The notes beneath the pieces were generated by a model, which worked only from the letters and a program-made list of their open reading frames with translations, made no database searches and was not told where the DNA came from. Below, in pieces: positions 50-10,240 of a DNA stretch of 10,240 nucleotides. The DNA comes from an uncultured Deinococcales bacterium (lineage in GTDB: Bacteria; Deinococcota; Deinococci; Deinococcales; JAAFIG01). How positions within the stretch are numbered: position 1 is the stretch's first letter; every line of letters starts with the position of its first letter. The stretch covers positions 4,877-15,116 of the forward strand of contig CAXTTL010000119.1 of assembly GCA_964247135.1 (NCBI GenBank), written 5' to 3'. The translations under genes were made by a program, and so were the position numbers.

Positions 50-1060
50 TCACCCACCTATCGCAACCATCGTGCGTTCCCGAATCTTGGGCAAAATATC
101 TCCCATGCGTTCTTTTCGGTGCGCCGCCTCGAGCAGCACGTCAATAATGCCTTCAATCGGGTTTTGGGAATCGAACGCCGCGCCAGCGTCCAGTTCGCGG
201 TCGGTCAGCAGGCAAGCCCGCACTTTGCGGTCTGCGGTCAGGCGCATTCTCGAGCACGCGCCGCAGAACGGTTCTGAGATCGGGTTGATGAAGCCAATGC
301 TGCCGGAAGACCCCGCAATTTTAAAAACTCGAGCGGGACTGCTTGGGTCGGTGGGGACAACCTCGAGCGTGCCAAATTCGCGTTCGATCATGGCTTTGGT
401 CTCACTTCCTGGCAGGAAAGCGTTTTTGTAGACGTCCAGTTGCGAGTTATTCAGGTGCATGTACTCAATAAACCGCACGTGCAAGGGCTTCTCGAGGCTT
501 AACCTTGCCATGTTGATGATCTCGAGGTCGTTGATGCCGCGAATGCTGACGGCGTTGATTTTGACGGGGTGCAGGTTTAACTCGAGCGCGAGGTCGATGG
601 CGTCAAGCACCACTTTCACGTCTCCTCCACCGGTGGCTTTGGCGAACACGGTTTGGTCGATGGCGTCCAGTGAAATGTTGACGCGGTTTAGTCCAGCCTC
701 GAGCAATTCCTTGTGACGGCGACGAAACAGGGTGCCGTTGGTGGTGATCGCAATGTCTTTGATGCCTGGGGTGGCGGCGGCGTTCGCCATCATTTCGGGC
801 AGTTCTTTGCGCAGCAAGGGTTCGCCGCCCGTAAAGCGTGCGGCGTCCAGACCCAGCAACGCGGAGGCGCGAACAAAATTGTCCACGTCGCGCACGCTGA
901 GCGTTCCGACGGGTTCGGGGTGCGTGTGACCGAGCGGGTCGCAGTAGGTGCAGTGGTAATTGCAACGCGGCGTGACCGAAATCCGCAGATCACGAATGAT
1001 GCGACCAAAACGGTCGATCAGGGCGGTGGGACGGTCAATCGTGGGCGTGGCAAGATTCAT
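50..1060 (-). CDS. moaA: GTP 3',8-cyclase (molybdenum cofactor biosynthesis radical SAM enzyme)
   Basis: N-terminal LIDRFGR..DLRISVT, radical SAM CxxxCxxC (CNYHCTYC), RFTGGEP, TTNG, NISLD, second cluster motif FCGACSRMRLTADRKVRACL, and the C-terminal M..IGG typical of MoaA. Confidence 0.96.
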   Translation of the reverse strand: MNLATPTIDRPTALIDRFGRIIRDLRISVTPRCNYHCTYCDPLGHTHPEPVGTLSVRDVDNFVRASALLGLDAARFTGGEPLLRKELPEMMANAAATPGIKDIAITTNGTLFRRRHKELLEAGLNRVNISLDAIDQTVFAKATGGGDVKVVLDAIDLALELNLHPVKINAVSIRGINDLEIINMARLSLEKPLHVRFIEYMHLNNSQLDVYKNAFLPGSETKAMIEREFGTLEVVPTDPSSPARVFKIAGSSGSIGFINPISEPFCGACSRMRLTADRKVRACLLTDRELDAGAAFDSQNPIEGIIDVLLEAAHRKERMGDILPKIRERTMVAIGG

Positions 1061-1069
1061 GAATGCGTT

Positions 1070-1075
1070 ATTCTA
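1070..1075 (-). promoter_or_regulatory. Putative -10 box (TAGAAT) 9 nt upstream of the moaA ATG; leaderless or very short leader
   Basis: Minus strand reads TAGAAT-AACGCATTC-ATG, with no Shine-Dalgarno before the ATG. Confidence 0.5.
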
Positions 1076-1114
1076 TGCGATCAAACCACTGGTGCGAGTT
1101 GTGCGGGTGACATT

Positions 1115-2269
1115 TCAAACATTCACAGCTTGCTCGAGATTCTTTGCCACCATCGGTTCGGCTTGCTCGAGTTTGGCTTTGACATCTGGGTATTTGATGA
1201 TGTTGAACCTCGAGTCGCGTTGGGCTGGGGTGAACCCTGCATCGTTGATGTGACGGATGATCTCGCGCTCGGTCACGCGCACGCGGTCGTGACCGCCGGC
1301 TTGACTGACCACATTTTCTTCCATCATGGTGCTGCCAAAATCGTTCGCGCCGTAAAACAAACCGACCTGCCCAACTTTAAAACCCAACGTGGGCCACGAC
1401 ACTTGAATGTTGGAAATGTTGTCCAGCGCCAGCCTCGAGACTGCCAAATTGCGCAAATATTCGTGGGCGGTTGCGCCTGGGGCTTTGCCGTGAAGGCGGG
1501 TGTGTTCGGTTTGCAGCGTCCACATGGCAAAACCAGAAAAACCATTGCCGCCGTGTACCGCATTGGCGCGGTCTTGTTGATCCCGAATTTTGATCATGTG
1601 CCTTGCGCGTTGGGTCAGGGTTTCACCAAAACCAATGACCATTGTGGAAATGGTGTACAAGCCCAAACCTTGGGCGACATCAAGAATTCTGAACCAGTCC
1701 GCGCTCGGAATTCGGGCGGGCGCAGCCTCGAGCCGTACCTCATCCTCGAGAATCTCGCCGCCGGCACCAGGCAAGCCGTCCAAGCCAGCGTCTTTCATGC
1801 GGCTGATAATCTCGAGCGCGTCAAGACCTGTGATGTGCTCGAGTCCAAGAATTTCTTCTGGGCTGAAAGCATCAATTTTAATGCTGGGATGGTGCTTTTT
1901 TAGGAATTCAAGCATCTCGAGATACCAGGAAAACGGCAGGGCTGGATTCACACCGCCTTGCAATAAAATGCGTGTCCCGCCAATTTCCTCGAGTTCCCTC
2001 ACTTTTTGCGAGATTTGCTCGAAGCTGAGGGTGTAGGCGTCATGTTGGCGCGGTGTGCGGTAAAAGGCGCAGAAGTTGCAACCGACGTTGCAAATGTTGG
2101 TGTAATTGATGTTGCGGTCAATCAGGTACGTGACGACATCGGGGCGCGTTTTGCTCAGGCGCATTTGATGTGCGGCACTTGCCAGGTCAGGCAGTGGCAA
2201 ATGGTACAACGCAACGATTTCTTCGAGGTTCAGCCTCGAGCCTGATAAAGCCCTATCAAGTAAATCCAT
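1115..2269 (-). CDS. mqnC: Cyclic dehypoxanthinyl futalosine synthase (futalosine menaquinone pathway, CofH/MqnC radical SAM family)
   Basis: VTYLIDRNINYTNICNVGCNFCAFYR, ILLQGG, LPGAGGEIL, TMVIGFGET, NIQVSW and GANDFGSTMMEENVVSQAG match the MqnC subfamily. Confidence 0.9.
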   Translation of the reverse strand: MDLLDRALSGSRLNLEEIVALYHLPLPDLASAAHQMRLSKTRPDVVTYLIDRNINYTNICNVGCNFCAFYRTPRQHDAYTLSFEQISQKVRELEEIGGTRILLQGGVNPALPFSWYLEMLEFLKKHHPSIKIDAFSPEEILGLEHITGLDALEIISRMKDAGLDGLPGAGGEILEDEVRLEAAPARIPSADWFRILDVAQGLGLYTISTMVIGFGETLTQRARHMIKIRDQQDRANAVHGGNGFSGFAMWTLQTEHTRLHGKAPGATAHEYLRNLAVSRLALDNISNIQVSWPTLGFKVGQVGLFYGANDFGSTMMEENVVSQAGGHDRVRVTEREIIRHINDAGFTPAQRDSRFNIIKYPDVKAKLEQAEPMVAKNLEQAVNV

Positions 2270-2275
2270 AACAGA

Positions 2276-2281
2276 ATGTTA
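2276..2281 (-). promoter_or_regulatory. Putative -10 box (TAACAT) 6 nt upstream of the mqnC ATG; leaderless mRNA
   Basis: Minus strand reads TAACAT-TCTGTT-ATG with no SD. It also lies in the small inverted repeat TAACA-GAA-TGTTA (2269-2281). Confidence 0.5.
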
Positions 2282-2375
2282 CGCCTCTTGACTTGGGTAC
2301 AACAGGTACACAACACCCGAAATTTCATTTTATCTTTACCTGTTCGGTTAAGATTGAGGCTCAAGGGGTGAAAAC

Positions 2376-2684
2376 ATGAAAAGATTTGGAATTGCGGTTC
2401 TTTTATTGTTGTCGTGTGTGGCGTTGGCGCAAACCGAAAAGAAAGTGATTGCGGTTGGCTACGCTTGTCAAACCAAAAGTATTTTTAAGATGTTGTACGC
2501 CATGAAGGACGCCAAAGCTCGAGCCAGCAAATTGGCACCGAACCTCAAAAGTGGTAATTGCGTCAACCTCAAAAAAGGCGACGCGGTCACGCAGACAGGC
2601 ACCAGTTTTGTCGATGATCTGGTGAAGGTCAAATACGCCAACAAACTGACCGAGTATTGGACTGCCAGCGAATTCTTGAATTGA
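2376..2684 (+). CDS. Small secreted hypothetical protein, basic, possibly with an SH3b-like C-terminal half
   Basis: SD-like AAGGGG upstream, a clear Sec signal peptide (MKRFGIAVLLLLSCVALA|Q), and two Cys in the mature part. It fills the gap between mqnC and the SDR. Confidence 0.8.
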   Translation: MKRFGIAVLLLLSCVALAQTEKKVIAVGYACQTKSIFKMLYAMKDAKARASKLAPNLKSGNCVNLKKGDAVTQTGTSFVDDLVKVKYANKLTEYWTASEFLN

Positions 2685-2687
2685 GCT

Positions 2688-3371
2688 TTAAACTTGCCGG
2701 TCGAACATGGCTGGCAAGTCAATTTCTTTGACGACCGTGCGCCTTGAAGTCTCGAGCACCGCCCGAACGAGGCGCACAATATCGGTTGGTGGAATCAGGT
2801 CTTCTCGCTCGAGATTGCCGTCCCAGGCAATGCTGCCAGGATTGATGACCGTCACGCCGATTTGTTGATCGCGCAAGTGCTCACGCAGGGCGTGGGCAAC
2901 GCCGCGCAAACCAAATTTACTGGCGGAGTATGCCACTTCGGGCATGGCCGTATTTTCCAGACCGTTGATGCTGCCGATCAAAATGATTTTCGGGTTGCTC
3001 GAGGTTTTGAGTTTGGGCAGCAAAGCTTGGGTTAACAAAATTGGTGCGATCAGGTTCACCTCGAGCACGGCGCGGGTTTCGGCTTCAGGAATCTGTTCAA
3101 AATCGTACTGACTCGAGAAAGCCCCGCTTTCCCAGATGCCAGCGTTGTGAATCACAACATCCAAACCCGTCTCGAGCTTGGCGGCAATCTGGGCATGAAC
3201 CCCAGCGCTCGAGAGGTCGGCTTGAATCCAGTGACGCCTCACACCGTCCTCGAGTTGCAAACTTGGGGGTGAATTCCTCGAGACCAGCCAGAGGGTGTCT
3301 GAAGGCTCTCCCAAGCCGCGTGAGAAGGCATCGCCCAAACCTCGAGATGCGCCTGTGATCAGGATGTTCAT
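2688..3371 (-). CDS. Short-chain dehydrogenase/reductase (SDR)
   Basis: ILITGASRGLG (TGxxxGxG), HNAG and the catalytic YSASK. Confidence 0.93.
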   Translation of the reverse strand: MNILITGASRGLGDAFSRGLGEPSDTLWLVSRNSPPSLQLEDGVRRHWIQADLSSAGVHAQIAAKLETGLDVVIHNAGIWESGAFSSQYDFEQIPEAETRAVLEVNLIAPILLTQALLPKLKTSSNPKIILIGSINGLENTAMPEVAYSASKFGLRGVAHALREHLRDQQIGVTVINPGSIAWDGNLEREDLIPPTDIVRLVRAVLETSRRTVVKEIDLPAMFDRQV

Positions 3372-3377
3372 GGCTGG

Positions 3378-3383
3378 AGTTTA
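3378..3383 (-). promoter_or_regulatory. Putative -10 box (TAAACT) 6 nt upstream of the SDR ATG; leaderless mRNA
   Basis: Minus strand reads TAAACT-CCAGCC-ATG with no SD. Confidence 0.55.
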
Positions 3384-3521
3384 AAGCGTTTTGAAACTTG
3401 AGGATGAGGGGTCTGAATTGCTGTGATTTTGGATTGGTGAGCACAAAGGATACGAGCGCCTGCTTCGCGCTCAATAAAGACTTAAATTTTGTATCCCCTC
3501 GAGTGACAACAAACAACCATA

Positions 3522-3540
3522 CCCAAGCCTCGAGCTTGGG
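3522..3540. repeat. Inverted repeat CCCAAGC-CTCGA-GCTTGGG upstream of acnA (possible operator or hairpin)
   Basis: Perfect 7-bp arms around a CTCGAG, immediately 5' of a TAAAAT (3542-3547) candidate -10 box. Confidence 0.5.
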
Positions 3541-3603
3541 CTAAAATGCCAAAGCTGCGGGTCTAAACGGACTCGAGATTCTAAAACCCAAGGACGGTCT
3601 GAC

Positions 3604-6324
3604 ATGGAACTCAAGAAGAACACTTTCGGCGCTAGAGACACCCTGCACGTGAACGGCAAAACCGTCAATTATTACCGTCTGGGCAAACTCGAGGAACACG
3701 GTTTTGACATTGCCAAACTGCCGTTCAGCATCAAAGTCATGCTCGAGAGCGTGTTGCGAAACTGCAACGGTTACGACGTGACCGAAGATGACGTGAAAAA
3801 CCTGGCGAATTACAACGCTGCCAAACCGCTCGAGGTTGAAATTCCGTTTAAACTGGCACGCGTGATCTTGCAAGACTTTACGGGCGTTCCTGCCGTGGTG
3901 GACTTGGCAAGTATGCGCACCGCCATGACCAAACTTGGCGGCGACCCACAAAAAATTAACCCATTAATTCCCGTGGATTTGGTGATTGATCACAGCGTTC
4001 AAGTCGATTTTTACGGCTCGAGCGACGCACTCCTTAAAAACTCCGAGATCGAATTTGACCGCAACCGCGAACGCTACGAATTTTTGCGTTGGGGGCAGCA
4101 GGCACTCGATAATTTCGGCGTTGTGCCACCTGCCAGCGGCATCGTTCACCAGGTCAACCTCGAGTATTTGGCAAAAGGCGTGATGAGCAAACTCGAGGAC
4201 GGCGCTACAGTGGTTTACCCAGATACGCTCGTCGGCACGGATTCGCACACCACCATGATTAACGGGCTTGGCATTGTCGGTTGGGGCGTCGGTGGTATCG
4301 AAGCCGAAGCCGTGATGCTCGGGCAACCCCTGTACATGCTGACCCCAGAGGTCGTGGGCTTTAAAATCACTGGCAAACTGCCCGAAGGTTCTACCGCCAC
4401 CGACCTTGCGCTGGTGGTCACGCAAATGCTGCGCAAAGCCAGCGTGGTTGGCAAATTCGTCGAATTTTACGGTTCTGGACTCTCGAGCATGACCCTGCCA
4501 GACCGCGCCACCATTGCCAACATGGCTCCAGAGTACGGCGCGACGATGGGTTTCTTCCCGATGGACGACGAAGCCATGCGTTACATGCGGCGCACAGGCA
4601 GGCTCGAGGATGAAGTTGAACTGGTCGCCGAGTACATGAAAGCCCAAGGCTTGTACCGCACCGATGCCACGCCAGACCCCGTGTTCTCGAGCATCATTGA
4701 ACTTGATTTGAGCACGGTCAAGCCGAGCCTGGCGGGTCCAGCCCGTCCGCAAGACCGCGTGCTCCTGGAGGACATGCAAAAAGTCTTCAAGCAAGCGCTG
4801 GTCGAGCCAAAAGACAAACGCGGTTATGCCTTAACACCCGCGCAACTCGAGGCACAAGGCACGATCAAAGATTTCAAGGGTTGGAGCGGCGAGATCACCC
4901 ACGGCAACGTTGTGATTGCCTCGATCACCAGTTGCACCAACACCAGCAACCCCAGCGTGATGCTTGGCGCAGGCATCTTGGCGAAAAAAGCGGTTGAACG
5001 TGGACTCTCGAGCAAGCCTTGGGTCAAGACTTCACTTGCCCCAGGCTCGAGGGTCGTGACCGAATATTTCAATGACGCGGGACTGACACCGTACTTGGAT
5101 CAACTTGGCTTCCAGACCGTCGGCTACGGTTGCACCACCTGCATTGGCAACTCTGGACCGCTCGACGAACCCGTGATTGCGGCGATCAACGAGGGCGATT
5201 TGGTCGCCGCCAGCGTGCTCTCGGGCAACAGGAATTTTGAAGGTCGCGTCAACCCGCACGTTCGCGCCAACTACCTGGCATCACCGCCGCTGGTGGTGGC
5301 TTACGCTTTGGCTGGAACGGTGGATATTAATCTCGAGACCGACCCAATTGGGCAAGACAAAGACGGCAACGACGTGTACTTGCGCGACATTTGGGCGAGC
5401 ACCGAAGAAATCGCGCAGCACCTCGACAACGCCACCAGCCCAGATACCTTCAGAAAAATCTATGACGGCATTGAGCAAAGTAACGCCCAATGGAACGCGA
5501 TTCCAGTCGCCGGCGGCGCGTTGTTCGACTGGCAAACGGACAGCACCTACATTCAAAACCCGCCGTACTTTGACGGACTCGAGCGCGAACCAGGCACAAT
5601 TCAGGCGGTTCACGGCGCTCGAGTCTTGCTATCACTGGGCGATTCGGTCACCACCGATCACATCTCCCCTGCTGGCGCGTTCAGCGCAAAATCGCCCGCC
5701 GGACAATTCCTAATTAACAGCGGCGTCAAGCTCGAGGATTTCAACAGCTACGGCTCGAGGCGCGGCAATGACCGTGTGATGACGCGAGGCACGTTTGCGA
5801 ATATTCGCATCAAGAACAAACTCGCTCCAGGCACGGAGGGCGGTGTGACCACACACTTCCCAACAAACGAGGTCGTCAGCGTCTACGAGGCGTCCTTGCG
5901 TTACAAAGCCGCAGGCACGCCGCTGGTGGTGCTGGGCGGCAAAGATTACGGCATGGGAAGCTCGAGGGACTGGGCGGCAAAAGGCACGATGCTGCTGGGC
6001 GTCAAAGCCGTGATTGTCGAATCGTTTGAACGCATTCACCGCAGCAACCTGGTTGGCATGGGCGTGCTGCCGCTGATGTTCAAAAATGGTCAGACCGCCG
6101 AAAGCCTGGGCTTGACCGGACGCGAAAGCTTTGATTTCCTGATTGACGACCACATCAAACCCCGCCAAGACGTGACCGTGCGCGTGACCGACGAGAACGG
6201 TGCGACTCGAGAATTTATTGCCTGGTTGCGCATTGATACCCCAGTCGAGGTGGATTACTACCGCAACGGTGGCATCTTGCAAACCGTATTGCGTCAGTTG
6301 CTCAAAGAATCCGTCACCGCTTAA
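3604..6324 (+). CDS. acnA: Aconitate hydratase A
   Basis: 906 aa with [80 protein letters not shown] and [17 protein letters not shown] upstream. Confidence 0.98.
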
Positions 6325-6345
6325 ATCGGAAAACAGTTTTAGCGA

Positions 6346-6377
6346 AATGCGGTGCTTTGATTCTCGAGCACCGCATT
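6346..6377. other. Intergenic stem-loop after acnA (11-bp perfect stem, 10-nt loop)
   Basis: AATGCGGTGCT (6346-6356) pairs with AGCACCGCATT (6367-6377). No U-tract follows, so it is not a canonical intrinsic terminator. Confidence 0.65.
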
Positions 6378-6396
6378 CAGCATTCAAGGAGCTTCT

Positions 6397-7173
6397 ATGG
6401 ACACGCTCGAGTTTGCCGGAAAAGTTGGCATTGTCACAGGTGCAAGCAAGGGAATTGGACGCGCCATCGCTCAGAGCCTTTCCACTCAAGGTATGAAGCT
6501 CGTTCTGGTGGCTCGAAGCCAAAACTTGCTCGAGCAACTGGCGAAAGATTTACCAAATGATGCTTTGGTGCTTGCCAAAGACTTGCGCGACCCAGCCGCA
6601 CCCGCGCAAATGGTTGCGGCGACGCTCGAGCATTTTGGACGTTTGGATACCGTGGTCAACAATGCTGGCGCAACCAAACGCGGCGACTTCCTCGAGTTGA
6701 CGGATTCGGATTGGGAAGATGGTTTCGCGCTGAAATTCTTTGGCGCAATGCGTTTGTGCCGCGCCGCCTGGAGTTTCTTGCAAGAATCTCAAGGGGCAAT
6801 CGTCAACATTGCTGGCGTCGGCGGGCGCACGGCGAGCGCGGAATTTACAATTGGCGGTTCGGTGAATGCAGCCACGTTAAACCTGACCAAAGCCCTGGCG
6901 GAGCGCGGCATTGCTGACGGCGTGCGCGTGAACGCCATTAACCCTGGTTCAATCGCCACCGAACGCTTGCAAACCCGAGTGCAAAGTGTTGCCAAAAACA
7001 AAGGCTTGACTCCAGAAATCGCCGCGCTCGAGATGGCGGCATCTCTGGGCATCTCGAGGTTTGGACAACCTGAAGAAATAGCGAACGTGGTCGCGTTTTT
7101 GCTTTCCAGCCGCTCGAGTTACATGCAGGGTGCAATTGTGGATGTGGACGGGGGACAGATTCGCACGCTTTAA
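6397..7173 (+). CDS. SDR family oxidoreductase with an atypical catalytic motif
   Basis: IVTGASKGIG, VNNAG, VRVNAINPG and C-terminal VDGG. SD AAGGAG upstream. The usual YxxxK position reads GSVNAA. Confidence 0.92.
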   Translation: MDTLEFAGKVGIVTGASKGIGRAIAQSLSTQGMKLVLVARSQNLLEQLAKDLPNDALVLAKDLRDPAAPAQMVAATLEHFGRLDTVVNNAGATKRGDFLELTDSDWEDGFALKFFGAMRLCRAAWSFLQESQGAIVNIAGVGGRTASAEFTIGGSVNAATLNLTKALAERGIADGVRVNAINPGSIATERLQTRVQSVAKNKGLTPEIAALEMAASLGISRFGQPEEIANVVAFLLSSRSSYMQGAIVDVDGGQIRTL

Positions 7174-7694
7174 TTTGTACCGCTCGAGACAGTTTTGACC
7201 AAGCCTTCGATTCTGGAAGTGACTTCCGCACCGTGCAAGTCTTCGTTTTTCACCACATACACAAATTTCACCACATACACAAACCTCGGCGCAACCCAAG
7301 CCCGAAAATCCAGCATGAGTGAATTGGCGAATCCCATCACGCTCATGTACGAATTCTTACCGCCAGCCGTGCAAATAAACCCGACCACCGCACCCTCGAG
7401 CCAGGTGTCGCCAACAAGTTCAATAAAGTTTTTCGCAGCGGCGGAAACATCGTAATTGTAAATCGCCACCGTAAAAATGATTTTGCGGTACTTGGAAACT
7501 CGAGCCGTGAGTTCGGTCACGATGCTCGAGTCAAACGAGTTGGCTGCACCCGCCATCGGCAGGTCGTAATCGCGCAGGTCGAGCACTTCGGCGTTGATGT
7601 TTTGAGTGTTGCAAACCTCGAGCGCCACCCTTGCCAAAACTTGCGAGCGGCTGTCGGGGTCAAGGCTTGTACCGATAATCAAGATGTCATTCAT
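7170..7694 (-). CDS. NADPH-dependent FMN reductase (flavodoxin-like)
   Basis: IIGTSLDPDSRS phosphate loop, IYNYDVSAAAKNFIE and AGGKNSY. Start moved from 7712 to 7694 because AGGAG lies 4 nt before that ATG. Confidence 0.85.
   Translation of the reverse strand: MNDILIIGTSLDPDSRSQVLARVALEVCNTQNINAEVLDLRDYDLPMAGAANSFDSSIVTELTARVSKYRKIIFTVAIYNYDVSAAAKNFIELVGDTWLEGAVVGFICTAGGKNSYMSVMGFANSLMLDFRAWVAPRFVYVVKFVYVVKNEDLHGAEVTSRIEGLVKTVSSGTN
7248..7283. repeat. Perfect 18-bp tandem duplication (TTTCACCACATACACAAA x2), in frame, giving FVYVVK-FVYVVK
   Basis: 7248-7265 and 7266-7283 are identical. Confidence 0.97.
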
Positions 7695-7778
7695 GGTGCT
7701 CCTGAAATGCACTAAATTTCAAACTCGAGCGAAAGTTTCTCGAGCAAAATACTGCGGACCGTATAGGCTTGATGTTGG

Positions 7779-8093
7779 TCAATACACAAATCGTTCGTAC
7801 ACAGCTCGTTCGGTTTTGATTTTAAGTCTGGTCATCATTTCTTGTGGGTTAAAACCAAGCCTTTGAAATTCGGCTTTGACCTCATTTCGTGCGTTTTCAA
7901 TGGCGGTTTCATTTTCCCAAACGGCTGTTGTGATGATGTCATATTGCCCATTTCCATCTGTTTTTTCGTACAGATAACCTTCCACAAAACCTGGTAAGAA
8001 TTTAAGAAAACCTTGTACTTTGCGGGTGTTTTCCAGGAATTCAACTCGAGATTCTTCGGGAACGCTAAAGAGATCAACTAAAACTTTTTGCAT
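7779..8093 (-). CDS. Antibiotic biosynthesis monooxygenase (ABM)-like dimeric alpha+beta barrel protein
   Basis: About 104 aa with F.VP....EF, LPGFVEGYLYE and TTAVWEN. Start placed at ATG 8093 behind AAGGGG. AT-rich. Confidence 0.75.
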   Translation of the reverse strand: MQKVLVDLFSVPEESRVEFLENTRKVQGFLKFLPGFVEGYLYEKTDGNGQYDIITTAVWENETAIENARNEVKAEFQRLGFNPQEMMTRLKIKTERAVYERFVY

Positions 8094-8175
8094 TTTTTGC
8101 CCCTTTGTTTGATCGACGCTCAATTGCGTTTACAACATGCGATTTGAGTCTCCAATAGCCCTCGAGTAATGTTTT

Positions 8176-8856
8176 TCATGGCGTTTTCCTTTGAATTTGA
8201 TACGGATAATTTGGTATCTCGAGCGTTTGATTTTGACTGCCTTCAATCACCAGATTCACAGCTTGAGACACGGCGAAAACACCCGTGCTGGGAAACCATT
8301 CTCGAGCATTTTGAACCAAAATCAGCAAACCGTGAGCGTCACCAACTGGTGCGAATGTGTCGCTCGAGGATTTGTACCTCTCGAGATTCAGATTCTCTTT
8401 GAACCATTTGACAAGCCCTGGCACGTTGTCACAAGCCAAACCAATTTCGGAAATGTTCAAAAAATTGGCGCTCGAGAATTCAGTTTGGCTGGTATTCTCG
8501 AGATCGTGTCTGGCGATGAGTTCAAGAATGTTTCCATGCGAATCAAAAAAATACACGGCATCCGAATTCCAATCTCCGCCACCAAAGACCAAATCGCCAT
8601 TCGTATCTGCAATCAATCCCACTCGAGCTTGAAGCCATTTTTTTGCCACCTCGAGTTGATTTTCTGGAATGTCGAACGCGAAGTGATAGCGCCCTGAAAA
8701 ACCAGTTTGCAAGGTAAATTTCAGACGACTCGAGCCAACTTGTACCATCAAAAAATCCTGAGTGAATTCGAGCACTGTTAGCCCTAGCAAATCAACATAA
8801 AACCGATGCTGAGCCTCGAGATTGCTTGTCAAAAGTTCTAACTCGAGAATATTCAT
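8176..8856 (-). CDS. VOC (glyoxalase/ring-cleaving dioxygenase) family protein with two VOC-like halves
   Basis: LEAQHRFYVDLLGL, YHFAFDIP, VYFFDSHGNILELIAR, ISEIGL and VGDAHGLLIL. SD AAGGA upstream, 10 nt after the QueA-like stop. Confidence 0.85.
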   Translation of the reverse strand: MNILELELLTSNLEAQHRFYVDLLGLTVLEFTQDFLMVQVGSSRLKFTLQTGFSGRYHFAFDIPENQLEVAKKWLQARVGLIADTNGDLVFGGGDWNSDAVYFFDSHGNILELIARHDLENTSQTEFSSANFLNISEIGLACDNVPGLVKWFKENLNLERYKSSSDTFAPVGDAHGLLILVQNAREWFPSTGVFAVSQAVNLVIEGSQNQTLEIPNYPYQIQRKTP

Positions 8857-8866
8857 GGGCGTCCTT

Positions 8867-9955
8867 TTACGGCAGTATCAAATGCAGATCGCCAAACTCG
8901 TGCCACAAATAGCCGTTCTCGAGCGCGGTAAGGTAGGCAAGCTCGAGGTGACGCTTGCCCGCGATTGCCTCGAGCATGGCGAGGTGCGTGGCTTTGGGTT
9001 CGTGCCAACCGGTTAACATGCCATTCACGGCGCGAACGCCGCGTTGGGGCGTGATGATGAGCCGCGTCCAACCCTCGCCAGGGTGTGTGATCGCCTGGCT
9101 ATCCGTGACCGTCTCGAGGGCGCGAACGACGGTTGTGCCGACGGCAATCACCCGTCGTCCGTCGGCTCGAGCCTGATTAACCGTGCGTGCCGTCTCGAGT
9201 GGCACGCGGTAGAATTCTTCAAATGGCGGTTCGTGATCCTCGAGCGAGGCGACGCCGGTGTGCAAAATCAGTGGCGCGATTTGCACACCCTTGGCGATCA
9301 GGCGCGTCAACAATTCTGGCGTGAACGCCCGTCCCGCGCTGGGCATTTCGGCGCTGCCATCTTCGGTGGCGTAAACGGTCTGGTAGTGCTCGAGCGACCA
9401 GTCGTGATTTACATAACCGTAACGAATCGGTTTGCCGTGACGGTGCAAGTACGCCATCAAAGTTTCTGGCAACTCGAGGCTGGCGACCCACAACCTCGAG
9501 CTTGCGGGGGTCGGCGCATTGGTTCTGTCCATCAGGTAGGGTGCAAGAATTTGTGCGCTAGCGCCACCTGGCAAGGTCAATGTCTCCCCCGCTCGAGCGT
9601 CACGAAAGGGAGTGGTCGCTCGAGTGCTCGGGGTGCGGAGTTCGATCACCCAAAGGTCGGCGGGCAGGTGCGTGGACAGGTGGAGCATCAACGGCGTGCC
9701 GTCTTGCCTGGTGGCACTCAGAGCCGCAGGCAGCGTGCCAGAGGTGTTGATGACCAGCACATCCCCAGCCTCGAGAAAATCTGGGAGCTTGCAAAACTGA
9801 GTGTGAACCAAACGGTCATCGTGCTTGCTCGAGATCAGCAAACGCACCTCATCACGCCGCAAGCCTCGAGCCTCCGGCGGTTCAAACGCCTCGAGTTCGG
9901 GCGGCAAGCTAAACTCGAGTGTTTCGAGATGAAAACTATTTGGCAATTGAAGCAT
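8867..9955 (-). CDS. QueA-family (SAM:tRNA ribosyltransferase-isomerase-like) protein, divergent paralog
   Basis: F.LPPEL, RD.VRLL, GDVLVINTS, YQTVYA, GSAEMPSAG, RVIAVGTTVVRALET and EFGD. The QueA fold is clear but several motifs are non-canonical, so the symbol is withheld. Confidence 0.85.
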   Translation of the reverse strand: MLQLPNSFHLETLEFSLPPELEAFEPPEARGLRRDEVRLLISSKHDDRLVHTQFCKLPDFLEAGDVLVINTSGTLPAALSATRQDGTPLMLHLSTHLPADLWVIELRTPSTRATTPFRDARAGETLTLPGGASAQILAPYLMDRTNAPTPASSRLWVASLELPETLMAYLHRHGKPIRYGYVNHDWSLEHYQTVYATEDGSAEMPSAGRAFTPELLTRLIAKGVQIAPLILHTGVASLEDHEPPFEEFYRVPLETARTVNQARADGRRVIAVGTTVVRALETVTDSQAITHPGEGWTRLIITPQRGVRAVNGMLTGWHEPKATHLAMLEAIAGKRHLELAYLTALENGYLWHEFGDLHLILP

Positions 9956-10240
9956 TCAGATCACCTCTGGCTTGATAGCGCCCACTGGGTAAATTTTGCT
10001 CGAGCAGGGTGAGTAATCCTGGAACACTTTCTTCTGGCGGTGGACGGTCCGAAATGTCCTCGCCAGGGAAAGCATCCTGGTGCATTTGGGTGTTCATGTC
10101 GCCAGGGTCAACGCTGTAAACGCGCAAGTTTGGGTGCTCGAGCGCCAGCACGTTGGTCAGTTGATCGAGGGCGGCTTTGCTCGAGCCGTACCCGCCCCAT
10201 CCCTCGTAAGCCTGGGTGCCCGCGTCGGAACTGACCAACG
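9936..10240 (-). CDS. SDR family oxidoreductase, 3' part only (5' end outside the window)
   Basis: VSSDAG, catalytic YGSSK and VDPGDMNTQM. Its end overlaps the QueA-like start by 20 nt. Confidence 0.88.
   Translation of the reverse strand, partial: LVSSDAGTQAYEGWGGYGSSKAALDQLTNVLALEHPNLRVYSVDPGDMNTQMHQDAFPGEDISDRPPPEESVPGLLTLLEQNLPSGRYQARGDLNASIAK

Follow-up and report, generated by a model that had tools for sequence, protein, structure and literature searches.

CTCGAG as a highly iterated palindrome in a family of Deinococcales

Highly iterated palindromes (HIPs) have been a puzzle of cyanobacterial genomes for three decades, and the literature consulted here discusses them as a cyanobacterial topic. 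The octamer HIP1 (GCGATCGC) and its alternate forms are GC-rich palindromes, shared by whole lineages and scattered through coding and noncoding DNA alike; in some lineages other palindromes can replace HIP1, as stated in the accessible part of Elhai's article (PMC4390886). Here we describe the hexamer CTCGAG, which has the same general properties and represents an independent case in another phylum, the Deinococcota. We have studied it in a stretch of 10,240 nucleotides from an uncultured Deinococcales bacterium (assembly GCA_964247135.1, contig CAXTTL010000119.1, positions 4,877 to 15,116 of the forward strand), hereafter called the window, and in the genomes of this organism and its relatives. 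Like HIP1, CTCGAG is conserved between genomes beyond the conservation of codons, as emerges when the tests applied to HIP1 in the accessible sections of PMC5861425 are repeated on it. Unlike HIP1, it is a different and shorter word that is several times denser, with about 6,700 copies per Mb versus the 300–2,700 per Mb that the same part of PMC4390886 gives for HIP1, and it leaves a measurable imprint on the proteome. Its six positions are equally protected, whereas the one-off variants of HIP1 are biased to the outer bases, and HIP1 and alternate HIPs generally have a cognate methyltransferase (PMC4390886, same part), whereas none was found for CTCGAG. Among the properties by which HIPs are recognized, CTCGAG thus displays the excess, the independence from coding, the conservation, and the sharing by a whole lineage, while no cognate orphan methyltransferase was found in the searched genomes, most of them incomplete drafts; it is a variant of the HIP phenomenon.

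CTCGAG may also be compared with other known systems. The uptake signal sequences (USS) of Pasteurellaceae and the DNA uptake sequences (DUS) of Neisseriaceae are lineage-specific short words in genome-wide excess, tolerated in genes and rare in foreign DNA, and CTCGAG is similarly lineage-specific, in excess genome-wide, present inside genes at a cost to their proteins, and rare in foreign DNA. USS and DUS are, however, nonpalindromic words of 9–12 nt, present about once per kb, and their link to competence is experimental, whereas CTCGAG is a 6-bp palindrome found once in 150 bp and known from sequence alone. In enterobacteria, very-short-patch repair by the Dcm/Vsr system enriches CCWGG, with a small effect and depletion of specific neighbors. 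CTCGAG may be likened to this system, in that a repair bias at a short palindrome would shift word frequencies genome-wide, but its excess is 25–35-fold, the corresponding neighbors are undepleted, and Vsr was found in none of the 19 genomes of its family. With respect to restriction-site avoidance, the same genome offers textbook cases in GGCC, CCGCGG, and GAGCTC, and CTCGAG is their opposite. In the full-text literature, with supplementary tables and subscription journals outside the scope, we found no prior report of the hyper-abundance of CTCGAG, which has apparently gone unreported so far; the accessible portions of PMC4390886 and PMC5861425 name neither CTCGAG nor Deinococcus nor Thermus. 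In the parts of the respective sources that could be consulted, methylation of CTCGAG is described for the genomes of hot-spring communities (bioRxiv 10.64898/2026.06.24.734251) and for a strain of Halorubrum (PMC8112702), its abundance not being treated in either, while some restriction sites are described as over-represented, only mildly (PMC4687349).

The window contains exactly 100 CTCGAG sites, dispersed between positions 128 and 10185, nontandem and outside longer repeats, while 200 dinucleotide-preserving shuffles of its sequence yield 2.08 on average and never more than 6. The twelve one-off variants counted in the window have 1–4 copies apiece; GAGCTC and GTCGAC have none. The source genome (G000), which is a metagenome-assembled genome (MAG) of 5,091,702 bases in 386 contigs (84% complete, 1.8% contamination, 52.7% GC, N50 of 18 kb) and yielded no 16S ribosomal RNA gene in a search of the whole assembly, has 33,925 copies, or about one per 150 bp. 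CTCGAG is its commonest hexamer: The next-ranked hexamers are words that overlap it, and the next palindrome, TTTAAA, has 3,272 copies. Base composition predicts 1,371 sites, dinucleotides 963, and trinucleotides 2,351 (Markov models of order 0–2), the excess being 25-fold over base composition and 35-fold over the dinucleotide model; 4.0% of all bases lie in CTCGAG sites. The density is 2.6–10.5 per kb (median 6.8) across all 297 contigs of at least 5 kb, and 318 nonoverlapping 10-kb segments hold on average 66 sites each (sd 12, range 26–100). The window is therefore at the extreme top of this distribution, and its roughly 48-fold excess overstates the genome average. A first-pass annotation of the window, made by a model from its letters, had counted about 100 sites, with coordinates that proved exact, and had noted that every gene carries the word, that seven copies lie in spacers, and that one-off variants are rare and GAGCTC and GTCGAC absent, all of which agrees with our counts and with the positions of the open reading frames (ORFs). 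It had further anticipated a genome-wide phenomenon akin to HIP1 with a different motif, and the contigs bear this out, leaving no room for an enrichment limited to the window or to its contig. Its assignment of the DNA to a probable member of Deinococcota is likewise sustained, the nearest aconitase records being from Deinococcales.

G000 is a fragmented and incomplete metagenome bin, and one might suspect an artefact of assembly, binning, or library preparation. The chance of this is negligible. The same signature is found in every one of the 16 family genomes sampled, including a single-contig assembly of 5.09 Mb, and in named records under three different isolate names, while the sites lie in frame within conserved genes and at orthologous positions. 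Contigs of four other public sequencing runs, from four studies, match parts of the window at 90–99% identity, and in one overlap of 606 bases with 49 differences none of the differences listed touches its seven sites. The first-pass annotation had allowed that raw reads might not support the sites; independent assemblies contain them, and an artefact is excluded. DNA of the window is present in seven public runs of four studies, at shares of up to 0.09, with no RNA run among them; the four overlaid runs cover parts of the window, and nothing follows from the remainder.

The unit of the phenomenon is the hexamer, as first supposed from its variable flanks. Flank preference in the genome is weak, with frequencies of about 37–39% for G at -1 and for C at +1, and of 37–43% for A at -3 and for T at +3. 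We have considered TCGA as the true unit and rejected it, given that 62% of TCGA copies fall within CTCGAG, while each of the 15 remaining NTCGAN contexts is either ordinary in frequency or depleted; the degenerate form CYCGRG fails too, CCCGGG being rare with 124 copies. A hairpin core, or one resembling repetitive extragenic palindromic elements or miniature inverted-repeat transposable elements, does not agree with flank complementarity, which is 0.22–0.30 versus 0.25 expected at distances 1–10 around 4,068 noncoding sites, and a longer motif does not agree with the normal divergence of the flanks when genomes are compared.

A mundane origin of the excess would be a by-product of codon usage, of codon-pair preference, or of selection for Leu-Glu pairs in proteins. 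We have evaluated it with crude longest-ORF gene calls, giving 4,742 ORFs that cover 87% of the genome with a main phase symmetric across strands. In its favor, 17,604 of the genic sites (61%) are in phase CTC|GAG, against 4,674 in phase xCT|CGA|Gxx and 6,723 in phase xxC|TCG|AGx, and GC-rich relatives and some GC-rich viral contigs reach 1–7 sites per kb largely through CTC and GAG codons. The density, however, is 7.6 per kb outside ORFs versus 6.5 per kb inside, so that noncoding DNA is the densest compartment. Moreover, when synonymous codons are shuffled within each gene, keeping the proteins and the codon usage of every gene, the expectation over 20 shuffles is 4,104 ± 52 genic sites (maximum 4,234), whereas 29,001 are observed: The enrichment does not vanish under such a null, as the first-pass annotation had conceded it might, but stands at 7.1-fold. 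By phase, in the above order, the excess is 5.6-fold, 13-fold, and 11-fold, and the null is conservative because the motif itself inflates the codon usage on which it is built, 44% of CTC codons and 44% of GAG codons sitting within CTCGAG sites. CTC accounts for 82% of Leu codons before Glu and for 15% elsewhere. The proteome bears the mark of this excess: Leu-Glu has the top ratio among dipeptides, 2.40 (22,995 observed vs. 9,567 expected, a surplus of about 13,400 pairs), 76.6% of these pairs are spelled CTCGAG, and Ser-Ser, which corresponds to the third-phase reading, ranks third at 1.64. Glu-Leu, by contrast, shows no enrichment (1.01), and its counterpart word GAGCTC has 0 copies. The noncoding density and the shuffle null refute an explanation by codon usage, to which we leave almost no probability.

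Comparison with a second genome of the same genus (G005), over 248 kb aligned at 85.7% identity, indicates how the excess is sustained. CTCGAG is intact in G005 at 1,382 of 1,764 sites (78%) versus 43–47% for other hexamers in the same phase, and at 116 of 158 noncoding sites versus 42.5% for control hexamers. All four constituent codons undergo 2–4.6 times less synonymous change within CTCGAG than outside it: CTC 8.6% versus 38.8%, GAG 5.5% versus 25.5%, TCG 5.7% versus 25.3%, and CGA 19.1% versus 38.0%. Across 1,239 sites, the mismatch is 5.7–7.4% at each of the six positions and 14–18% at the adjacent bases; the protection covers exactly six bases, with no footprint in the flanks. Transitions from the motif to a one-off neighbor are 2.5–4.5 times below matched controls, while transitions pairing a one-off neighbor with the motif are 5–8 times above controls, in both cases as unpolarized estimates. 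Losses are suppressed and gains are raised, and this fits a directional fixation bias. Its strength would be roughly S = 3, judging from the gain/loss ratios, and mutation bias alone does not fit the pattern of gains and losses. Hence CTCGAG is almost certainly a true highly iterated palindrome, spread over the lineage and the genome, which a six-base fixation bias creates and preserves. We have very little doubt that this bias is at work in each of the three reading phases as well as in noncoding DNA, overriding synonymous drift and replacing amino acids.

The aconitase gene, which we have used for tracing the history of sites across the order with a site-by-genome matrix, adds a temporal dimension. 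Its sequences from 13 genomes of the family have 50 distinct CTCGAG positions, of which 2 are common to all 13, 16 are singletons, and many are clade-specific. Several sites came by replacement of VA, RE, or GT with LE in single clades, at positions where other members of the family or the sister families have other residues. The process is old, since some sites are common to all genera of the family, and also ongoing, since some gains are specific to one genus or unique to one genome.

Where the genome lacks the word, it frequently lacks the ordinary base composition as well. The longest site-free gaps (1.3–2.6 kb) are mostly low-GC islands, with 27–40% GC, and CTCGAG is missing from only 15 of the 1,999 genes that reach 300 aa; together, these data imply that sites accumulate with residence time. 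Ten motif-poor genes were scanned: One encodes a fusion of reverse transcriptase and protease, one an O-antigen ligase, and two ordinary solute-binding proteins, while three have matches to AAA/STAND-type NTPases (two below the family cut-off) and the last three match nothing or, below the cut-off, a domain of unknown function. The CTCGAG-free islands with 27–35% GC lie at C13:4757-14536, C70:14167-16418, C4:51524-53437, and C20:7985-9673. Among their products are a reverse transcriptase joined to a trypsin-like protease, NTPases of the STAND/AAA kind that carry TPR repeats, and proteins without Pfam match; these are probably imported defense islands. It seems to us well-nigh certain that resident DNA is what the bias works on, and that imported low-GC islands have so far escaped it. 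The density of CTCGAG may consequently serve as a marker of the residence time of DNA, flagging imported islands, and as a sharp signature for binning.

Sites are spaced at a mean of 148 bp with a coefficient of variation (CV) of 0.96, a near-Poisson arrangement that fits a process autonomous at each site. Relative to expectation, distances of 6–12 bp occur at 0.26, those of 12–24 bp at 0.72, those of 50–200 bp at 1.2–1.26, and those of 400–800 bp at 0.73. No pairs occur at distance 6, because they would create the avoided word GAGCTC. A check of spacing periodicity, which the first-pass annotation had proposed, revealed only the 3-bp period of coding at short range; within this range, and in a fragmented assembly, neither a helical period of 10–11 bp nor a longer one is seen.

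These observations create a puzzle: Which agent could favor one six-letter word so persistently, wherever it stands? Our committed choice, which we consider plausible but would not call probable, is biased repair or gene conversion driven by a reader of CTCGAG. A protein, or a pair of proteins, having an exact specificity for CTCGAG of the type II kind would bias the outcome of repair or recombination, such that the CTCGAG strand tends to prevail when an allele with the word and one without it are paired in a mismatch or heteroduplex. Such encounters could follow replication errors or recombination with relatives, or take place between genome copies, and the process would amount to biased gene conversion as Elhai's model has it for cyanobacterial HIP1. 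We infer both the reader protein and its action via repair or conversion rather than via selection at the level of the organism. If methylation were involved, the reader would differ from the known XhoI-type enzymes. Biased conversion would be autonomous at each site, which fits the sharp footprint, the near-Poisson spacing, and the very high density. The more specific version, in which the reader is unrelated to XhoI-type enzymes, Vsr, and MutH, is perhaps methylation-free, and drives site-autonomous biased conversion, is a possibility that we rate slightly lower. If true, the reader would have written about 34,000 copies of its word per genome and about 13,000 extra Leu-Glu pairs per proteome; Deinococcales would offer a ready-made experiment, one and the same six-letter word being driven in opposite directions within an order, and this would be a second independent origin of HIPs, the first in which comparison of close lineages could find the causal gene.

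Several points weigh against this reading. The estimates of gain and loss are unpolarized and the gene calls crude, as said above, and organism-level selection leaves the same signature as biased conversion in the tests that we applied. Foremost, no reader or modifier of CTCGAG was found in the searched genomes of the family (f1), even if the family is rich in DNA methyltransferases, as a search with seven Pfam methyltransferase families or domains indicates. The XhoI endonuclease family (PF04555) was found in 0 of the 19 f1 genomes, and no orthologue of the methylases that adjoin XhoI genes in sister families turned up in any of the 19; Vsr (PF03852) is found in 0 of 19, and MutH and the TaqI-type recognition domain in 0 of 5 each. 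No methyltransferase that we traced is common to the whole family: In G000, four adjoin endonucleases or sit in a type I operon, and of the two apparent residents of the complete genome G011 one does not extend beyond its genus and the other is sporadic. An XhoI-type methylase is not predictive of the trait in the sister families either, with ratios of 0.75, 1.27, 1.81, 1.96, and 4.88. Finally, the word counts of G000 reveal no position-specific depletion of one-off neighbors. CTTGAG and CTCAAG stand at 1.16 and 1.17 times expectation, and TTCGAG and CTCGAA at 1.76 and 1.72; the lack of depletion of the former two means that there is neither a Vsr-type footprint nor a sign of deamination at the central CpG. 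The proposal of the first-pass annotation, an orphan methyltransferase coupled to Vsr-like biased repair, thus finds no support so far in any of these searches. On the other hand, the absence of genes is weak evidence because 17 of the 19 f1 genomes are incomplete drafts, and the failed search would amount to absence of support for known enzymes, not to a disproof.

The individual candidates can be summarized as follows. PF04555 is present in the sister-family genomes G021 and G033 and, in broken form, in G031, and Vsr in 2 of 22 sister-family genomes; MT-A70 is present in one of five f1 genomes. Probing with the XhoI-linked methylases retrieved in G000 a best match that is 28% identical and belongs to an MvaI/BcnI pair, in addition to one partial match of 86 residues in G006. 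The methylases of G000 that have endonuclease partners are a C5 methylase beside an NgoPII-family endonuclease (contig C14, L195:3041-4937), a second C5 methylase beside an Eco29kI-family endonuclease, an N4/N6 methylase beside an MvaI/BcnI-family endonuclease, and a D12 methylase beside a SacI-family endonuclease (contig C320, L200:1061-2985); a type I operon completes the account. The D12 methylase was rejected as the CTCGAG factor, being part of a SacI-family pair with homologues in 7 of 19 f1 genomes, as was a solitary PF01555 methylase beside alaS on contig C36, the close homologues of which are limited to G002 and G007, with a fragment in G010. In G011 we found eight methyltransferase genes, at least four of them in low-GC islands or restriction-type operons. 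Its 527-aa N6 methylase has close homologues only as fragments in G003 and G016, besides relatives of 43–50% identity in nonenriched families, and its D12 orphan methylase is restricted to genus g3; neither was retained.

The restriction-modification pairs of G000 account for other features of its word usage. GAGCTC has 0 copies in 5.09 Mb versus about 1,371 expected, GGCC has 380 versus 24,474 expected, and CCGCGG has 11. These most strongly avoided words match what we take to be the recognition sites of the adjoining families, namely GGCC for NgoPII, CCGCGG for Eco29kI, and GAGCTC for SacI. The first-pass annotation was right about the absence of GAGCTC, which is, however, no part of the CTCGAG phenomenon: It has its own, separate cause in the SacI-family pair. 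The avoidance of GGCC reaches the proteome, where no dipeptides are more depleted than Trp-Pro (0.19) and Gly-Pro (0.43); G011, from another genus of the family, has no GGCC avoidance.

A different agent could be natural transformation, with CTCGAG as a tag of self DNA: If a receptor or processing step of competence preferred DNA carrying the word, methylated or not, uptake and recombination would together spread it, a molecular drive of the kind put forward for USS and DUS and lately for HIP1. The same word in all five genera, the imported islands without it, the sites throughout core genes and spacers, and a spacing slightly more even than random, as in the distances of 50–200 and 400–800 bp reported above, all agree with such a tag, and uptake sequences are known to distort proteomes. 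The ComEC channel is found in five of five family genomes tested. In the accessible text of two reports, HIP1 enhances transformation in a way that depends on methylation and is proposed as an uptake sequence (PMC13756078; bioRxiv 2024.09.10.611283). Yet we consider a self-DNA tag unlikely. ComEC is near-universal, occurring also in 10 of 14 control genomes, and no receptor candidate is at hand. Known uptake signals are asymmetric as well as longer, at 9–12 nt and about one per kb, whereas CTCGAG is a 6-bp palindrome with 6.7 copies per kb; at one site per 150 bp, typical fragments would hold dozens of sites, a further one would bring hardly any gain in uptake, and the drive should saturate far lower.

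Alternatively, CTCGAG could be the binding site of an abundant architectural protein, for nucleoid organization, condensin loading, or protection, maintained by weak selection at each site. The exact palindromic footprint of six bases is what a dimeric reader would leave, the noncoding density is equal or higher, and sites are depleted at short range (the 6–12 and 12–24 bp distances given above), with long gaps depleted as well. Against this, the zero count at distance 6 follows from the avoidance of GAGCTC, the spacing is almost Poisson with no helical or longer periodicity, no footprint extends beyond the hexamer, and no candidate protein has emerged; besides, about 34,000 sites would each have to be individually visible to selection. 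We regard an architectural role as improbable, more so than a tag for uptake, and retain biased conversion as our working interpretation.

The distribution of the trait among relatives is graded. The closest named aconitase records, all labeled "MAG: Deinococcales bacterium," are 98%, 81%, and 80% identical and have 5.4–6.0 CTCGAG per kb, versus 0–1.7 per kb in 77 aconitase loci of other groups. Family f1 comprises G000 and 18 other genomes in five genera; 17 of the 19 are fragmented drafts, 57–94% complete. CTCGAG is the top hexamer in all 16 f1 aconitase loci sampled and in 11 of 11 larger samples, at 4.7–6.6 per kb over a GC content of 45–63%; in the same 11 samples it is 9–56 times the dinucleotide expectation, with Leu-Glu ratios of 1.95–2.42. 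The complete single-contig genome of 5.09 Mb, G011, exhibits the same signature in 20 evenly spread pieces, and the excess over the codon null in five f1 genomes is 7.1-, 7.4-, 5.4-, 4.0-, and 9.5-fold. In the sister families, where all 22 genomes were sampled at 40–60 kb each, the ratio to the codon null is 1.4–1.6 in the six genomes of f2, except one at 4.9, 1.5–2.2 in the five of f4, 0.75–1.5 in the five of f5, except one at 3.2 (with CTCGAG as top hexamer and Leu-Glu at 1.61), and 0.06–0.58 in the six of f3, which form a single genus, g7, and have 0.02–0.23 sites per kb. The trait is extreme and uniform in f1, whereas its sisters have it weakly or unevenly and genus g7 shows the reverse. 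Given that it is graded within one order, phylogenetic profiling could identify the responsible gene, which was not possible for HIP1. The situation also implies that analyses of codons, dipeptides, and substitution rates in this lineage are confounded by a force acting on DNA, and it predicts an extreme digestion pattern with XhoI and TaqI, or complete resistance if the sites are modified.

Some genomes deserve separate mention. In genus g7 (L208-L210, L382-L384, L400-L407), CTCGAG is nearly absent, yet the XhoI endonuclease family is found in 0 of 6 genomes, which may point to a restriction activity that is directed at CTCGAG but has another fold. The f5 exception, G030 of genus g13 (L385-L387), has 2.5 sites per kb, while G034, the second genome of that genus, is only at 1.5 times the codon null; the f2 exception, G027 (L370-L372), reaches its ratio with 1.25 sites per kb. 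In G011, the aconitase gene (L087) has 7 sites versus 14–22 in relatives and still has 11 Leu-Glu pairs, and in its other samples (L165-L184) 50% of Leu-Glu pairs are spelled CTCGAG versus 63–82% in relatives, with the Leu-Glu excess at 2.18. The excess of Leu-Glu may here persist as a fossil where the DNA word decays.

Viral contigs of IMG/VR were also scanned for clusters of three CTCGAG, giving at least 120 stretches. The densest among the matches listed are GC-rich (64–70%) and mostly rich in GAGCTC too; the abundance of GAGCTC, together with high Glu-Leu in most such contigs, points to a codon effect. Contigs L308, L339, L356, and L271/L348 have CTCGAG as their top hexamer, at 4.3–6.8 per kb, and L339 has 27 CTCGAG and 0 GAGCTC. 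These contigs are uninformative on the phages of the family, with 9 of 11 lacking any match to the compared Deinococcales DNA and two having a single local match; the latter are L348 and L356, the other three of the five named having none.

Returning to the window, a Pfam scan indicates housekeeping genes throughout, in accord with the opinion of the first-pass annotation that the responsible gene lies elsewhere. Its sites, assigned to ORFs by hand, distribute over 11 ORFs as 8, 11, 1, 10, 19, 7, 5, 1, 11, 17, and 3 along the sequence. On the reverse strand, a MoaA-like radical-SAM gene with Radical_SAM and Mob_synth_C domains (50..1060, 8 sites) is followed by a CofH/MqnC-like radical-SAM gene (1115..2269, 11 sites); then come a forward ORF of 102 aa without Pfam match, which is only a candidate gene (2376-2684, one site), and a short-chain dehydrogenase (SDR) gene on the reverse strand (2688..3371, 10 sites). 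The forward strand carries the aconitase gene (3604..6324, Pfam Aconitase at 3.9e-163, 19 sites) and a gene resembling short-chain dehydrogenases and enoyl-ACP reductases (6397..7173, 7 sites). The remaining annotated genes are on the reverse strand and encode an NADPH-dependent FMN reductase (7170..7712, 5 sites), an ABM-type monooxygenase (7779..8123, one site), a protein with a weak match to the glyoxalase fold (8176..8856, 11 sites), and QueA of queuosine biosynthesis (8867..9955, 17 sites). The seven intergenic sites comprise three at 3498, 3529, and 3572 (3498..3577) in the 232-bp spacer from the SDR gene to the aconitase gene, one at 6363..6368 between the aconitase and the next SDR gene, two at 7724 and 7739 that are 15 bp apart (7724..7744), and one at 8161..8166. 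The first of these spacers is a variable spot among relatives (window 3385-3490): In the same-genus genomes G004 (C71:70776-78729) and G005 (C57) it holds several extra kb, which include a gene for an N6-adenine methylase of about 504 aa, and in a contig from an independent run 32 other letters stand in place of 103 bases of the spacer.

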